From: Firmicutes bacterium CAG:460
GTDB lineage: Bacteria; Bacillota_I; Bacilli_A; RF39; UBA660
Length of the DNA stretch: 64,000 bases
Direction of reading: 5' to 3'
NCBI GenBank assembly: GCA_000437355.1
Contig: FR899764.1
Location: 24,884-88,883 of the forward strand
This document shows, in pieces, positions 36,820 to 63,563 of the stretch. The notes under the pieces were generated by a model, which saw only the letters and a list, made by a program, of their open reading frames with translations, did not search any database and was not told where the DNA came from. The stretch's first letter is position 1. Each line of letters starts with the position of its first letter. The translations under genes were made by a program, and so were the position numbers.

Positions 36820-36833
36820 TGGTGGAGAATGTG
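36820..36833. repeat. Left att core (lysis-proximal junction)
   Basis: TGGTGGAGAATGTG. With the adjacent phage-side bases it forms the perfect dyad TGGTGGA-GAATGTG-TCCACCA. Confidence 0.85.
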
Positions 36834-36877
36834 TCCACCAAATAAGCCCTTTATTTCCTTATTATAAGGCTTTTTTA

Positions 36878-36904
36878 TTTTTTTACCGCCATTTTTTACC
36901 GCCA
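36878..36904. repeat. Tandem arm-type repeats TTTTTACCGCC(A) x2, left arm
   Basis: tttttttaccgcca / ttttttaccgcca. The same motif recurs at 63438-63462 in the same orientation. Confidence 0.6.
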
Positions 36905-36980
36905 TTTCATTTATTGAAGGAAAATATAAAAAAAATGAATGCTTTTAACATATTTTTTTCAAAGAATTAAAACACAAAAA

Positions 36981-54228: not shown

Positions 54229-54801
54229 TTAAGAAAGCAATGAGTCAATAAATAAACCTGGAAACAATTCGATTTTAATATGATTTACTGCATCATCTAA
54301 CTTTCTATAACATGTTGAGATATCATAATTTAATTCTAAAGAAATTGAATTCATATTGTTTTTATCTAAATAAAATTTTTTAATGATGTTTCTTTCAATT
54401 TCAGATAAATCATTTATTATTTCTAAAACACTTGCTTTAAATTCTGTTATTTTTGCAATAGTCTGATACAAATCTATTATTCTATTATTTATAACATCCA
54501 AATTATTCGTAGGTAAACCAAAACTTGATTCAACACTAGATATTTTAAATTTTGGTGAATCTATTTTATTTTTCGCCTTCTGTAATCTCTTTATTTCTTT
54601 TTGATAGTTTGAAATAGCTTTATCTAATCTTGACATATTCTTTAATAAATTCTTTGTTGCATAAAATGGATCCTGAACAGGTTTAATTATTTTCAAATTA
54701 ACTAGTTCTTTAATTATAAATGATGATACATCTTTTTTTAAAATATAATCTTTTTTTATTTTATTTTTTAATTCTTCATTTTCTTTTTCAATATTATTCA
54801 T
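54229..54801 (-). CDS. Late-gene transcriptional regulator candidate (sigma region-4-like / ArpU-RinA-like)
   Basis: The C-terminus LSEIERNIIKKFYLDKNNMNSISLELNYDISTCYRKLDDAV resembles a sigma-70 region 4 HTH. It is the last early gene before the packaging module. Confidence 0.4.
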   Translation of the reverse strand: MNNIEKENEELKNKIKKDYILKKDVSSFIIKELVNLKIIKPVQDPFYATKNLLKNMSRLDKAISNYQKEIKRLQKAKNKIDSPKFKISSVESSFGLPTNNLDVINNRIIDLYQTIAKITEFKASVLEIINDLSEIERNIIKKFYLDKNNMNSISLELNYDISTCYRKLDDAVNHIKIELFPGLFIDSLLS

Positions 54802-57322: not shown

Positions 57323-57653
57323 TCCTTTCCAGTTCTTGTATTAGATTTATAATTTTTTCAATAAATTCTTTATTATCATGGGTAGAATTGATTTTCAAAA
57401 TTTTAAAATGATCCTTTAACTTATTCCATTTCTTTTTATAATCATTAATTTCACAAAGCTCATTTCGTAATTCTATGACATCATCTTCTCTACGATTGTT
57501 GCTTCTTTCTAAATATTTAATTCTCTTTTGCTGTTGCTCAATATCTTGTCGTAATTTATCACAGTCTTTATGCATATATACGAGTTCTCTTGCTAATTCT
57601 CCTTTTGAAAAATTATCTTTATAGCCTTGTTTGTCAAATATTCCTAATCTCAT
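57306..57653 (-). CDS. Hypothetical coiled-coil phage protein
   Basis: 115-aa ORF overlapping the recombinase gene stop. Confidence 0.45.
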   Translation of the reverse strand: MRLGIFDKQGYKDNFSKGELARELVYMHKDCDKLRQDIEQQQKRIKYLERSNNRREDDVIELRNELCEINDYKKKWNKLKDHFKILKINSTHDNKEFIEKIINLIQELERNDSYE

Positions 57654-58318
57654 CTTTTTTTTGCACCACCAATATAAATCGACTCACGATCTTCTTCAAC
57701 ATCATTCATATCCCACATTACATAAAACATTGTAATCGATGGATCTTCGTGGTTATACATTCTTTGAAGGGTTACGAGCTTACCACCATTTTTAATAAAT
57801 TGATATCCAAATGTTTTTCTTAAACTATGAAGTTCAAATCTAAAATCAATTCCACAAGCATTAATTACTTTTGCGAATATTGTTTGTCTACAATTTTGTC
57901 TAGTAATTGGATAAATCACCTCTTTAGTAACTCCGTTATAAGTATCTTTTTTCTTTTGTCCCATAAACAAGTAACTGTTGCTATTTAATTTGTATTTTGC
58001 TACATACTGCATTATTTCATTATGCAAATCTTTATTCATTCTGAAATGTTGCCATTTACCAGTCTTATTTTCCTTTATTGAAACATAACCTTTTTCAACA
58101 TCTTTTACTTTCAGCTGAAGTAAATCCTCTGCTCTGAAAGCGGTGTTAAAACCAATTAGAAATAACATGTAATTTCTGTCTGCTTGATATTTTTTTATAG
58201 GTGTTTTAGCACTCGCAGCTTGAAATCGTAGATAATCCATTACTCTTTTAAGAAGCTTTTCATCTTTAATTGGCAGTGTTTTTCCTTTACCACCACTAGT
58301 TTTAATTCTTCTAGTCAT
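57650..58318 (-). CDS. Minimal tyrosine recombinase (catalytic domain only), second recombinase of the prophage
   Basis: 222 aa. Candidate catalytic residues in FRAEDLL (Arg), HSLRKTFG (His-x-x-Arg), YNH and MFYV (Tyr). No long N-terminal arm-binding domain. Confidence 0.7.
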   Translation of the reverse strand: MTRRIKTSGGKGKTLPIKDEKLLKRVMDYLRFQAASAKTPIKKYQADRNYMLFLIGFNTAFRAEDLLQLKVKDVEKGYVSIKENKTGKWQHFRMNKDLHNEIMQYVAKYKLNSNSYLFMGQKKKDTYNGVTKEVIYPITRQNCRQTIFAKVINACGIDFRFELHSLRKTFGYQFIKNGGKLVTLQRMYNHEDPSITMFYVMWDMNDVEEDRESIYIGGAKKR

Positions 58319-58331
58319 TTTTTATCCTTTC

Positions 58332-58433
58332 TTTGTCCACTAATCTGAGGAAATCATTATCATAGAATAAGGGATGATGTATAATGAAAAGACTGATAAG
58401 ACGTTTAATAATTTCCTCAACTTAGTGGACAAA
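58332..58433. repeat. Imperfect inverted repeat (28-bp arms, 25/28) enclosing a 46-bp segment, directly upstream of the small recombinase gene
   Basis: Left arm TTTGTCCACTAATCTGAGGAAATCATTA (58332-58359). Right arm reverse complement TTTGTCCACTAAGTTGAGGAAATTATTA (58406-58433). The loop holds a plus-strand TTATCA, 17 nt, TATAAT (58357-58385). Confidence 0.85.
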
Positions 58434-58441
58434 TTTTTAAT

Positions 58442-58684
58442 TTAGTCCTCTTTGTATTCAACTAGTTTTTTTCTAATTAAATCACTTACATCTTCTGCTT
58501 CAACATTGTACCCCATTAAATGACCATTTTCTTCATGATATTTTTTAATAGATGCATCTTTTAAGATTTCAATAAAAGCAAAAGTATCATCGTTTTTAAG
58601 TAATTTTGTATAACCTCCTAAGGTATCTTTATACCCGAGTTTTTCTAGTTCCTTCAATTTTTTTAAATCTCTAAATACATACAT
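58442..58684 (-). CDS. Hypothetical phage protein
   Basis: 80-aa ORF. Confidence 0.45.
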   Translation of the reverse strand: MYVFRDLKKLKELEKLGYKDTLGGYTKLLKNDDTFAFIEILKDASIKKYHEENGHLMGYNVEAEDVSDLIRKKLVEYKED

Positions 58685-59851: not shown

Positions 59852-60544
59852 TTAATCAGCTCCTTTACTATGTAACCAGTCAAAGTTTAAAACTTCTTTT
59901 TGCTCATCGGTTAACTCAATTTCTGAATTATTTAATGAACTTATAACACCTGATTTAAAATTTTCAACCTTTGTTTTCCCCATGTTTTTCCAATTAGTTA
60001 AAATTCCATCAATATAACCAATTGAAACTTTTTCATTTCTCTTTGCTATTTCAATAGCTGCTTTAATTACATCAAGTTCAAATGTACTTTCCCACCTTTC
60101 GATTATTTCAAATTCATTTTGATTTATTGTTCTTTTTATTTCTTTTTCTAATAAAAGAAATAAATCATTATCATTTACATTTTCATTATCATTTACATTT
60201 TCATTTTCATTAAACTTGTTTTGTTTGTTTTTGCTTGTTTTGCTTGATTGATTGTTTTTGCAAGCATTTTTATTACCTTTAGGAGCACCGCCCCTTTGCC
60301 CAGCCATACTGCGTTTAAGAGTAATTTGATTGTATTTTTCATTGTCAACAAGCAATTGGTTGTTTATGAAATCAAAAGCCATTTCTATATCATTTTCTAA
60401 AACAACCTCATTTCCGAGTTGTTTTTCAAATAATGCTCTAAAAAGTCTTCCGAGTTGTTCATTGTTCAACTTTTTAATAATGTTATAATGAGAAAAATAA
60501 AATATTATACTGTCTTTTTCTTTCACATTTTTGTTCCCTTTCAT
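59852..60544 (-). CDS. Replication initiation/organiser protein with a C-terminal DnaD-like domain
   Basis: The C-terminus FEIIERWESTFELDVIKAAIEIAKRNEKVSIGYIDGILTNWKNMG matches the DnaD/DnaB_2 repeat. A low-complexity linker lies in the middle. Confidence 0.65.
   Translation of the reverse strand: MKGNKNVKEKDSIIFYFSHYNIIKKLNNEQLGRLFRALFEKQLGNEVVLENDIEMAFDFINNQLLVDNEKYNQITLKRSMAGQRGGAPKGNKNACKNNQSSKTSKNKQNKFNENENVNDNENVNDNDLFLLLEKEIKRTINQNEFEIIERWESTFELDVIKAAIEIAKRNEKVSIGYIDGILTNWKNMGKTKVENFKSGVISSLNNSEIELTDEQKEVLNFDWLHSKGAD
60165..60210. repeat. 18-bp tandem repeat (2.5 copies) inside the replication gene linker
   Basis: tcattatcatttacattt at 60165-60182 and 60183-60200, plus a partial copy. 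Encodes NENVND repeats. Confidence 0.8.
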
Positions 60545-61060: not shown

Positions 61061-61295
61061 ATTCACATTTTGTGGATGTACTATTTAAATAAAAACAACT
61101 TAATTCACACCCAATAGCATTAGAAATATAAAATAATAATATAGCACTAATTTTACTAGCATCAGTTTCATATTTAATATAAGTTTTACGAGAAATACCA
61201 ACTTCTTTAGCAATATCATCTTGAGTTTTATTTGCTCTATTTCTTTCAGCTTTAATATTATTCGCAATAGTAATACCATTAACAGTATAATTCAT
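61059..61295 (-). CDS. Cro-like XRE-family HTH protein
   Basis: Start at ATG 61295 after GGGAGGTG. HTH KTQDDIAKEVGISRKTYIKYE. Confidence 0.75.
   Translation of the reverse strand: MNYTVNGITIANNIKAERNRANKTQDDIAKEVGISRKTYIKYETDASKISAILLFYISNAIGCELSCFYLNSTSTKCE
61064..61079. promoter_or_regulatory. Operator-like site copy 3 (inside the cro-like gene 3' end)
   Basis: CACATTTTGTGGATGT, identical over 16 bp to 61330-61345. Confidence 0.5.
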
Positions 61296-61319: not shown

Positions 61320-61348
61320 ATTATAACTCCACATTTTGTGGATGTCAA
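61320..61348 (-). promoter_or_regulatory. Early (cro-side) promoter with perfect consensus
   Basis: On the minus strand: TTGACA (61343-61348), a 17-nt spacer, then TATAAT (61320-61325). The spacer is the palindromic operator. Confidence 0.75.
61329..61341. promoter_or_regulatory. Palindromic operator CCACATTTTGTGG
   Basis: Perfect 13-bp palindrome lying exactly in the early-promoter spacer. Confidence 0.7.
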
Positions 61349-61357
61349 TATCTTTTT

Positions 61358-61370
61358 ACACATTTTGTGT
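61358..61370. promoter_or_regulatory. Second palindromic operator ACACATTTTGTGT
   Basis: Perfect 13-bp palindrome, 29 bp centre-to-centre from the first. Confidence 0.6.
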
Positions 61371-61378
61371 ATTTTTAG

Positions 61379-62127: not shown

Positions 62128-62143
62128 AAAATGAAAAATCACA

Positions 62144-62169
62144 AAAGTCCGACAAGACTAAAACAAAAT
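62144..62169. repeat. Right copy of the 26-bp perfect inverted repeat
   Basis: aaagtccgacaagactaaaacaaaat. It lies ~90 nt upstream of the integrase ATG, and a TATAAT sits at 62179-62184. Confidence 0.95.
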
Positions 62170-62259
62170 ATCAAGCGATATAATGTTTATGGATCTTTCA
62201 TATTCATTATATCACAAATGCATAAAAAAACAAAGAAAAATATACAAGGAGTGATAAAA

Positions 62260-63426
62260 ATGAATACAAAAATATATGAAAGAACTAGATGGGAAAATAT
62301 ATATAGACATAAAACAAATAAAAATTACGTAATTAGATTCAATGGTAAAGTTGAAACTAGTGTATCTAAGGATGAACGTGGCAATAAAATATTTGATTCT
62401 GAAACAGCAAGAAGAATTAGAGATAACCAAATAATTATTAATCAAAAGAAAATCCAAATTAAGCATAAAGAATTAATTGATGATCATTGGGATAGATATA
62501 TTGAGGAATGCAAGTATATGAAAAAACAAGCATATAACACTATAATAAGAAAAACAAAAGCATATAACAAATATATCAGAAGTAAAATATTAATGCCAGT
62601 CAATAAAATATCAAAAGATTATTGGGCAAAATATATTGATAAATTAGAATGTTCAGATAAACAAAAAAATCAATTAATAAAAACATTGAAAGCATTTTTA
62701 AATTGGTGTGTAGACGAAAATATCATTGTTCAAAATGAAATGAAAAAAGTAAAAAATTATAAAGTTGTAAAAGCTGAAATGAAGTACTGGTCACCTTTAG
62801 AAATTAAAACCTTCTTCACTAAAATTGATAGCTTAATAGAAACAGCCAATGACTTAACCTTTAAAAGACAATCTCTTATGATTAAAACTCTTGTCATGAT
62901 TAATTTTTGTTTAGGAGATAGAATTGGTGAAACAAGAGCTTTAACTTTTAATGATATAAATGAAAATAATATGACAATAAGAATAGCACACTCAATAAAT
63001 TATGATATAAAGTCAAAAGACTATTTATCTAATACAAAAAATTATCAATCACAACGTGATGTTCTAATAACTAATAAATTGATAACTCAAATTAAATTAT
63101 ACAAAGATTTTTTGTTAAATGAAATGAAATATAAGGTTACAGATGACTCACTAATATTCTATAATTATGAGTATGATAAACCACTATCAGATACAACAAT
63201 AAGAAATCAGTTTAAAAGATTTTGTCAATTATGTGGGGTCACTAAAATAAGATTATACGATTTAAGACATACCTACGTTGCCACGATGATGGCTGAAGGG
63301 AAAGAATTATATCAAATAAGTTCACGACTTGGACATAGCAGTTATGCAACTACTGTCAATAAATATGGTCATCTTTCAACTGAAATAAAAAAAGAAATAG
63401 CAAATACTACTGATAAATATCTATAA
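62260..63426 (+). CDS. int: Phage integrase (tyrosine recombinase)
   Basis: Start at ATG 62260 after AAGGAG. C-terminal catalytic motifs (GDRIGETRAL, LYDLRHTYVATMM, LGHSSYATTVNKYGH). Adjacent to the tRNA junction. Confidence 0.9.
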   Translation: MNTKIYERTRWENIYRHKTNKNYVIRFNGKVETSVSKDERGNKIFDSETARRIRDNQIIINQKKIQIKHKELIDDHWDRYIEECKYMKKQAYNTIIRKTKAYNKYIRSKILMPVNKISKDYWAKYIDKLECSDKQKNQLIKTLKAFLNWCVDENIIVQNEMKKVKNYKVVKAEMKYWSPLEIKTFFTKIDSLIETANDLTFKRQSLMIKTLVMINFCLGDRIGETRALTFNDINENNMTIRIAHSINYDIKSKDYLSNTKNYQSQRDVLITNKLITQIKLYKDFLLNEMKYKVTDDSLIFYNYEYDKPLSDTTIRNQFKRFCQLCGVTKIRLYDLRHTYVATMMAEGKELYQISSRLGHSSYATTVNKYGHLSTEIKKEIANTTDKYL

Positions 63427-63437
63427 AATCAGTGGTA

Positions 63438-63462
63438 TTTTTTTACCGCCTTTTTACCGTGG
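63438..63462. repeat. Tandem arm-type repeats TTTTTACCGCC / TTTTTACCGTGG, right arm
   Basis: Same motif and orientation as 36878-36904. Confidence 0.6.
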
Positions 63463-63549: not shown

Positions 63550-63563
63550 TGGTGGAGAATGTG
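63550..63563. repeat. Right att core (int/tRNA-proximal junction)
   Basis: TGGTGGAGAATGTG, identical to 36820-36833. Confidence 0.85.

Follow-up and report, generated by a model that had tools for sequence, protein, structure and literature searches.

The 64-kb window analyzed here (64,000 nucleotides of contig FR899764.1, from Firmicutes bacterium CAG:460) contains a 26.7-kb prophage. In the early operon of this prophage, an inverted repeat lies directly ahead of a gene for a 222-amino acid (aa) tyrosine recombinase. We propose that this repeat is probably a hairpin in the early polycistronic messenger RNA (mRNA): an RNase III-type processing site, or an element that acts on stability or translation. 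The structure, the strand, and the position of the hairpin emerge from comparison of related sequences. From these we infer that the folded species is RNA and not single-stranded DNA, and that RNase III or stability control is its mode of action.

The first-pass annotation of this DNA had favored an inverton, in which the recombinase flips a promoter lying between the arms of the repeat. That tempting phase-variation call is now removed; no phase-variable switch is indicated. An RNase III-type stem, with a long duplex and no U-run, had been listed as an alternative, and it is the alternative that appears to fit the comparative data best.

Layout and fold of the inverted repeat

The repeat itself is as first described: two arms (58332-58359 and 58406-58433) that match at 25 of 28 positions and enclose a 46-nucleotide (nt) spacer. 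It occupies the 123-bp gap between an upstream open reading frame (ORF) and the recombinase gene. Read in the sense of the genes, on the minus strand, the hairpin begins with the 5' arm UUUGUCCACUAAGUUGAGGAAAUUAUUA (58406-58433), continues through a loop that is pyrimidine-rich and G-poor on this strand and includes CAUCAUCCCUUAUUCU (58360-58405), and closes with the 3' arm UAAUGAUUUCCUCAGAUUAGUGGACAAA (58332-58359). Of the three mismatches seen at the DNA level, two become U·G wobbles on the sense strand and the third a G·A. The flanks are tight: a function-unassigned 80-aa ORF (58442-58684, minus strand) has its stop codon 8 nt ahead of the hairpin, and GAAAGGAU (58324-58331, minus strand, read from sequence), the Shine-Dalgarno sequence that serves the recombinase gene, starts right after the base of the helix. 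The repeat and the recombinase ATG (58318-58316) are 13 nt apart.

This repeat ranks first among the local inverted repeats of the window. Folded as RNA, its minus strand reaches -33.5 kcal/mol (z = -3.9), an energy matched by 0 of 200 shuffles. The helix exceeds the length of about 20 bp taken as a minimum for an RNase III-type processing or stability hairpin, and it lies on the transcribed strand between co-oriented genes. An RNA duplex of this kind, near-perfect, longer than two helical turns, and lacking a U-tract, is a classic RNase III substrate, not an intrinsic terminator. On the sense strand no U-run follows the stem, which continues with GAAAGGAUAAAAAAUG, and the loop of 46 nt likewise departs from the form of an intrinsic terminator.

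Several other identities were considered for the element and set aside. A miniature inverted-repeat transposable element does not agree with a single copy in the window or with hairpins that occupy different sites with unrelated stems; a search of the window for a second copy of the arm at up to 3 mismatches found none (0.00 expected). A protelomerase-type site is at odds with arms 46 bp apart and with a prophage integrated at tRNA-Ala with a clear attachment (att) core. Small plus-strand ORFs in the loop (23 codons from 58374 and 13 codons from 58384, with an AAGGGA motif before them; region 58374-58445) have ATA in place of their start codons in two related loci, L062 and L059. A promoter read in the sense direction where the loop meets the 3' arm was dismissed as well, as the -10-like hexamers are absent in the hairpins L130B, L061b, L059b, and L002. 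As a possible guide RNA, the loop finds matches elsewhere in the window of 10-11 nt at most, below the shuffled expectation of 11-13 nt. Rfam 15, run on the window region and six related loci, gave only sub-threshold miRNA-precursor noise at the hairpins; tRNA-Ala alone passed.

Covariation and strand asymmetry

Comparison of related prophages had been suggested as a means of separating an RNA stem from a conserved DNA site, and in that comparison compensatory changes preserve the stem. We aligned ten variants in register, from loci whose recombinases are 82-99% identical; columns 6-33, the 5' arm, pair with columns 83-110. Across this 28-pair helix, 90.6% of cells hold standard pairs, versus 42-50% after the 3' partner has been shifted by 1-3 columns. 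Compensatory double changes occur at 19 of the 28 pairs, and none of 500 shuffles attains these values. RNAalifold independently recovers the same helix, with 24 pairs, 17 of them compensated, and a covariation term of -7.2 kcal/mol. The pattern is visible in a single comparison: between the window and L026, five pairs are swapped (C-G to U-A, A-U to C-G, U-A to A-U, and two A-U to G-C) and the loop is mostly unalignable. Across the variants, the loop sequence varies freely and the stem is kept.

The pairs that deviate from Watson-Crick are informative about the strand. Among independent events in the core helix, about 12 are G·U on the sense strand, 2 are A·C, and about 4 are of other kinds; the asymmetry between G·U and A·C has a one-sided binomial p of ~0.004-0.007. 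The same direction is seen more widely. Counted over 26 long hairpins of these loci, there are 586 Watson-Crick, 52 G·U, 3 A·C, and 9 other pairs, a bias that is overstated, as the set was partly picked with G·U allowed. A scan for long hairpins returns 36 distinct ones when wobble is allowed on the sense strand and 13 when it is allowed on the antisense strand. Mutation bias does not account for the G·U excess, because minority transitions in the adjacent recombinase coding sequence are balanced: 31 would make G·U and 34 would make A·C.

On comparative grounds, the helix is thus under selection that acts on the sense strand, and the strand bias of the wobbles indicates that the folded molecule has the polarity of mRNA. 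A site for a protein on duplex DNA, or a cruciform, would not give such a G·U asymmetry; a single-stranded DNA hairpin of the same polarity would.

Distribution among related phages

Our survey covers 125 loci with relatives of the recombinase, drawn from genome, viral, and metagenome collections, and nine further loci added via a look-up of 82-87% identical proteins. A homologous hairpin directly upstream of the gene is found only in the closest lineage, where recombinases are 82-99% identical. Its forms are the window type, shared by L020, L057, L058, and L087; that of L062; that of L059, L060, and L061; that of L026, shared by L056, L063, and L138; that of L136 and L137; and that of L130-L135, in which two hairpins stand in tandem. 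In all nine recombinase-proximal variants, the gap from helix to Shine-Dalgarno sequence is 0-2 nt. For the tenth aligned hairpin, L130A/L131A, what comes next is hairpin B, not a Shine-Dalgarno sequence. The genes upstream of the hairpin vary between phages (80, 66, 74, or 117 aa), and therefore the hairpin travels with the 5' end of the recombinase gene, not with its upstream neighbor. Relatives of the 80-aa ORF in viral contigs came from the same phage only and gave no separation of the linkage to the upstream gene.

Two members of this lineage have features of their own. In L130 (1288-1490; the same in L131-L135), where the recombinase is 82% identical, the proximal hairpin of the tandem is homologous to that of the window, and the distal one has another outer stem with the same inner GAGAGGAA/UUCCUCUC segment. 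This suggests that the tandem arose by duplication. L087 (2858-3645 of VOFC01001802.1) looks like a mosaic, with a 96%-identical hairpin beside a 70%-identical recombinase; it is the same phage as that of the window, because the two differ by homopolymer indels of the sort that long-read assembly errors produce. A degenerate DNA pattern of the arms, searched in viral contigs, gave L055 as its only new match; this lies inside a long coding region and is a chance match.

Beyond the closest lineage, loci with 50-77% identical recombinases have no homologous hairpin; where they have short hairpins at all, these are unrelated. The recombinase gene of L002 and L003 directly adjoins the ORF before it; in L085, with a 53%-identical recombinase, an unrelated long hairpin takes the same upstream position. 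Overall, the hairpin is absent at ~45 of 53 non-redundant homologue loci. Judged from these loci, it is not a feature of the recombinase family at large: most homologous genes lack any adjacent repeat, an outcome that the first-pass annotation had itself named as telling against its reading.

This distribution bears on the idea that the repeat is the DNA target of the recombinase, recognized either as two duplex half-sites or as a folded single strand whose 24-29-bp stem serves as one core site. Such a target could be expected where the repeat is found, directly upstream of the gene in all close relatives, with the hairpin of L085 likewise placed; the recombinase retains all its catalytic residues, and the stem has the size of a dif-type core site. 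A conserved structure with variable sequence and one-strand asymmetry is a hallmark of attC sites, and these features are seen here too. Set against this are the loci that encode the recombinase and have no hairpin, and a k-mer search of the flanks of 53-54 non-redundant recombinase loci that found no conserved site in the family, only low-complexity A/T words. Loci whose recombinases share 89-95% identity have arms that differ at 3-5 positions, and equivalent hairpins are found kilobases away from the recombinase gene in L002-L004, L059, and L061; this rapid divergence and distant placement also weaken the proposal that the repeat is the recombinase's own resolution site. Further, the two hairpins within L061 have unrelated stems, as do the two within L130; internal dyad symmetry of the 11-6-11 type is absent from both arms; and neither an RYYYAAC/GTTRRRY box nor a conserved extrahelical base is present. 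The idea of a target site survives only in a structure-recognizing, attC-like form, and we consider it unlikely.

A wider class of hairpins

A covariance model built from the ten variants was used to find hairpins in the related loci, and it has hits at other intergenic sites of related early operons. Downstream of the recombinase module there is a class hairpin in L061 (3825-3929) and another in L059 (4813-4922). In L002, L003, and L004, a class hairpin lies immediately upstream of the DnaD-like replication gene, and a second long hairpin precedes the first. Members of the class have helices of 24-29 bp and pyrimidine-rich loops of 27-64 nt; their stems share no sequence, even between the two hairpins within one phage in L061 and L130. 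A small class of long hairpins with pyrimidine-rich loops thus recurs in related phages of uncultured Bacilli, and it has no Rfam family.

Pooled over 21 hairpins, the loops contain 20% C and 8% G. Their complementarity to a Shine-Dalgarno probe averages -11.5 kcal/mol, versus -8.2 for shuffles and -4.4 for reverse complements (p ~6.5e-5). Two loops that are otherwise dissimilar stand out: that of L002 2006-2083 contains ATCACCTCCTTTCT and that of L004 771-868 contains ATCACCTCCTTTC, which is the 3' end sequence of 16S ribosomal RNA (rRNA). This 16S-tail-like motif supports an RNA-level role of the class; it is not a property of the window hairpin. The loops of L002 and L004 remain an unexplained lead.

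A few observations accompany these loops. The motif of L002 and L004 is partly paired with GGUG(A) at the 5' side of the loop, and anti-Shine-Dalgarno-like motifs are also present in the loops of L059 4813-4922, L130 1288-1386, and L061 3825-3929. A scan of viral contigs with ATCACCTCCTTTCT was unproductive: the top-ranked matches inspected were mostly Shine-Dalgarno sequences of the opposite strand, and none lay within a long repeat. Separately, L040 has four long hairpins with G·U wobble within ~1.1 kb (69-1123), ~3 kb upstream of a gene for a 51%-identical recombinase, and no ORF of at least 40 aa at ~780-1390; this region may be a non-coding RNA locus.

Two further proposals concern the class: that the hairpins are folded single-stranded DNA sites, attC-like, on which the catalytic-domain-only recombinase acts, or that their tops are released by RNase III as trans-acting small RNAs. 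In the attC-like form, the phage would be able to rearrange its early-gene cassettes in the manner of an integron; in the small-RNA form, the exposed loops would mimic the 3' tail of 16S rRNA and act on Shine-Dalgarno sequences or on factors that bind the tail. Variable sequence, conserved structure, one-strand specificity, and sites at the boundaries of small-gene modules agree with cassette shuffling. The stems, on inspection for attC boxes, read (A/G/U)UUG...CAA(A/C/G/U), which is the opposite polarity, and the helices are near-perfect with no conserved bulges. We hold this pair of proposals to be very improbable.

A model for the early transcript, and its rivals

We favor an mRNA hairpin that works as follows. 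A leftward early transcript from ~61348-61320 would carry the hairpin between a stop codon and a Shine-Dalgarno sequence. The presumed source of this transcript is a consensus sigma-70 promoter in the cI/cro-like switch region (61320-61348, minus strand), with TTGACA, 17 nt, and TATAAT (12/12). On the minus strand from the 61348 promoter to 58433, we found no genuine terminator-like site; the sole hit in that interval (61342-61328) is an operator-like palindrome inside the early promoter, and a canonical site with a U-tract is present elsewhere in the prophage. Host RNase III would cut the hairpin, or the hairpin would block 5'-3' and 3'-5' exonucleases (RNase J1 and 3' exonucleases). Either way, the part of the operon from the recombinase to the late regulator would be uncoupled, in stability and translation, from the upstream cistrons. 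We propose this uncoupling because the position of the hairpin is fixed: a few nucleotides past one stop codon and abutting the Shine-Dalgarno sequence that follows. If the model is true, the hairpin is an unannotated element that sets the cutting or stabilizing of the early operon ahead of the recombinase and late-regulator genes.

Several points weigh against an mRNA hairpin. The ten aligned variants represent only about six or seven independent lineages. Cleavage by RNase III is suggested by the length of the helix only. The window's own loop (CAUCAUCCCUUAUUCU) is weakly of the type seen in the class, with 33 of 200 shuffles as complementary to the Shine-Dalgarno sequence. The strand asymmetry would fit a single-stranded DNA hairpin of the same polarity too. 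Templated repair can keep the arms of a long DNA palindrome matched, such that covariation alone is no proof of selection on RNA. Finally, an A-run precedes many of the hairpins, and the opposite strand therefore reads as a hairpin and a T-run, which is terminator-like.

A single-stranded DNA signal could serve replication, either as part of the phage origin or as a single-strand initiation signal on the displaced strand. Several Firmicute phage origins are non-coding regions with inverted repeats, and all class hairpins lie ~0.1-3 kb from a DUF6291/DnaD-like gene; the one-strand asymmetry would suit such a signal. The position relative to the replication gene varies, however: the hairpin is upstream of it in L002-L004 and downstream in the window, L130, and L136. 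A search around the hairpin found no iterons or direct repeats, and both the abutment on the Shine-Dalgarno sequence and the anti-Shine-Dalgarno-like loops of related hairpins point to RNA and translation. A role in replication seems distinctly improbable.

Templated repair raises the prospect that the element has no dedicated function and is palindromic filler, or a recombination-prone mosaic boundary, that owes its symmetry to repair. Hairpins do occur at junctions where related phages differ in gene content, and the sequence of their stems turns over fast. Yet the hairpin stays in place across lineages whose flanking non-coding sequence has diverged, and neither a strand-specific G·U bias nor G-poor loops would be expected of a neutral DNA palindrome; we think this explanation improbable.

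The terminator-like reading of the opposite strand corresponds to a plus-strand element: a terminator or a promoter for transcription antisense to the early operon. On the plus strand, TTTTTAATTT comes after the hairpin, similar T-runs come after most related hairpins, and a promoter-like site is present. The wobbles, though, become A·C on this strand, and the 12:2 asymmetry favors the other one. Every gene found at 37.0-61.3 kb of the prophage is on the minus strand, so a plus-strand terminator would have no transcription unit to act on; intrinsic terminators do not typically combine a 28-bp stem and a 46-nt loop; and the promoter match is at chance level. We give this possibility very little credence, and the mRNA hairpin stays our preferred explanation.

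The promoter-like hexamers and the inverton

According to the first-pass annotation, the segment between the arms carries a promoter, with TTATCA, 17 nt, and TATAAT at 58357-58385 on the plus strand. The hexamers are indeed there (10/12), and it is the promoter role that is not supported, as matches of this quality occur at the frequency expected by chance. A 5.7-kb region has 37 promoter-like sites versus 40.3 +/- 6.6 in shuffles, and the 26.7-kb prophage has 28 sites of at least 10/12 versus 34.9 +/- 5.7 in shuffles, 16 of the 28 on the non-coding plus strand. In the L026, L130, and L136 variants, the hexamers are unrecognizable. We judge them to be a chance match that lies outside the function of the element. 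The suggestion of an antisense promoter draws on the same chance-level hexamers.

An inverton would have the recombinase flip the 46-bp segment, turning the internal promoter away from or toward the recombinase and late-regulator genes. What recommended it was a small catalytic-domain-only recombinase, similar in size to FimB/FimE, beside an inverted repeat that encloses a promoter-like match; NCBIfam tyrosine-type invertase models give weak, sub-threshold hits (E ~1e-4, 22 bits versus a 221-bit cut-off). The two orientations that were to be expected are not seen: the loop has a single orientation in ~20 independent assemblies, which include five stem variants, and in all diverged variants. 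The stem is compensated, the mismatches favor G·U on one strand, unlike those of a duplex-DNA site, and the hairpins of L130 stand in tandem. Most recombinase homologues have no repeat at all. Moreover, 46 bp between arms (~74 bp from center to center) is far below the size of known invertible segments and unfavorable for synapsis. Of the features that could be checked, the bare layout alone agrees with an inverton, which we regard as extremely unlikely.

A resemblance of the repeat to the att core of the prophage had also been remarked on. It amounts to a 7-nt match between TTTGTCCAC and TGTCCACCA that is missing from the other hairpin variants, and it looks coincidental.

The 222-aa recombinase

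The gene that follows the hairpin (57650-58318, minus strand; Pfam PF00589, phrog_216) encodes, as first proposed, a tyrosine recombinase reduced to its catalytic domain. PF00589 covers residues 43-201 (E = 1.1e-18, 68 bits versus a 27.1-bit cut-off); ~40 residues precede it, and there is no N-terminal core-binding domain. The match to phrog_216 has an E of 1.6e-39, and the closest sequences with solved structures are archaeal XerA proteins. By alignment to XerA structures and by homologue columns, R62, K85, H164, R167, H190, and Y199 are invariant in 15 homologues, and they hold even in a 34%-identical protein of Streptococcus phage IPP67. Because these catalytic residues are invariant, the recombinase is probably active. 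It does not score as a member of the characterized groups whose models we applied: the FimB/FimE invertase models (NCBIfam PRK09870/PRK09871) score 21.9 and 19.1 bits versus cut-offs of 221-222 bits, and scores with XerC/D and integron-integrase models are far under the cut-offs.

The family is present in 213 phage records, which include Streptococcus, Clostridium, Bacillus, Listeria, and Thermus phages. In phage IPP67, the recombinase gene is just upstream of an HNH endonuclease gene, followed by large ORFs annotated as hypothetical. Streptococcus prophages likewise have the small recombinase just upstream of an HNH gene, and in the satellite prophages of Streptococcus (Javan series) no gene of the element comes after it. 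The role of a "second integrase" in phage phIS3501 has been called unclear (PMC3335513), and literature on the function of the small recombinase family or on RNA-guided tyrosine recombinases yielded nothing beyond that remark. This widespread small "second integrase" of Firmicute phages is thus still without an identified DNA target.

The prophage and its early operon

Two copies of a 14-bp att core, TGGTGGAGAATGTG, delimit the prophage: one at 36820-36833 and one at 63550-63563, the latter overlapping the 3' end of tRNA-Ala. On the left side (36820-36840), the core gives TGGTGGA-GAATGTG-TCCACCA, which resembles core-type inverted binding sites, and three copies of TTTTTTACCGCC near both ends (36879-36907 and 63439-63454) resemble arm-type integrase sites. 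The integrase gene (62131-63426, plus strand) is at the right end.

The early operon runs from a cro-like gene to a DUF6291/DnaD-like replication gene (59852-60544), several small ORFs, and the 222-aa recombinase, and continues with small ORFs, a RinA/ArpU-like regulator, an HNH gene, and large structural ORFs. The regulator (54229-54801, minus strand) is a putative late regulator: its C-terminal half has weak RinA/ArpU/sigma-70-like similarity, below family cut-offs, and its N-terminal extension is coiled-coil-like, with a YwqH-like hit. Three copies of CACATTTTGTGGATGT, two exact and one with 88% identity, are found at 61064-61079, 61330-61345, and 61359-61374. Two are around the consensus promoter in the divergent cI/cro-like region, and the third lies at the cro-like gene's 3' end. 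The lysis-lysogeny switch probably uses them as operators.

Comparison with known systems

Among known systems, invertons such as E. coli fimS with FimB/FimE and the promoter invertons of Bacteroides share with this locus a recombinase of ~200 aa, devoid of an arm-binding domain, beside an inverted repeat. Their segments measure ~150-300 bp or more and contain a proven promoter, whereas the segment here is 46 bp with a chance-level match. Unlike invertons, it is seen in one orientation only, and the evolution of its arms shows wobble of the RNA type.

Folded recombination sites (integron attC with IntI, and the attP of CTX phage with XerCD) are similar in their imperfect hairpins, variable sequence with conserved structure, one-strand specificity, and use of a tyrosine recombinase. 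They differ in that the hairpins described here lack an R/L box consensus, extrahelical bases, and, on the recombinase side, the IntI-specific insertion, and are missing from most loci that encode the recombinase family. The Xer modules (XerS/difSL, XerH/difH, and archaeal XerA/dif) are related through XerA, the best structure match, and a site immediately upstream of the recombinase gene, as here, is typical of XerS/difSL. A dif-type site, however, has 28-31 bp arranged 11-6-11; here, two 28-nt arms with no internal dyad are 46 nt apart.

At the level of RNA, the exposed pyrimidine-rich loops complementary to Shine-Dalgarno sequences recall the CU-rich loops of S. aureus RNAIII and RsaE. Unlike these separate small RNA genes, the phage hairpins are embedded between cistrons, and the loop motif of the window is weak. 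The leaders of ermC and aprE and the REP elements are alike as strong hairpins able to block exonucleases and so stabilize mRNA.

The closest likeness in kind is to the RNase III sites of phages (T7 R0.3-R18.5, the lambda N-leader and sib, and Bacillus phage SP82): long intercistronic hairpins with no U-tract in phage early operons, several per genome in some relatives, with structure conserved more than sequence. In the T7 sites the helix is bulged and the loop small, whereas the hairpins described here, known from sequence alone, have near-perfect stems of 24-29 bp and pyrimidine-rich loops of 27-64 nt; their host is among the uncultured low-GC gut Bacilli, and they have no Rfam match. Intercistronic hairpins that process or stabilize phage transcripts are therefore a known kind of element, of which the window hairpin and its relatives are new, unannotated members with a large CU-rich loop.

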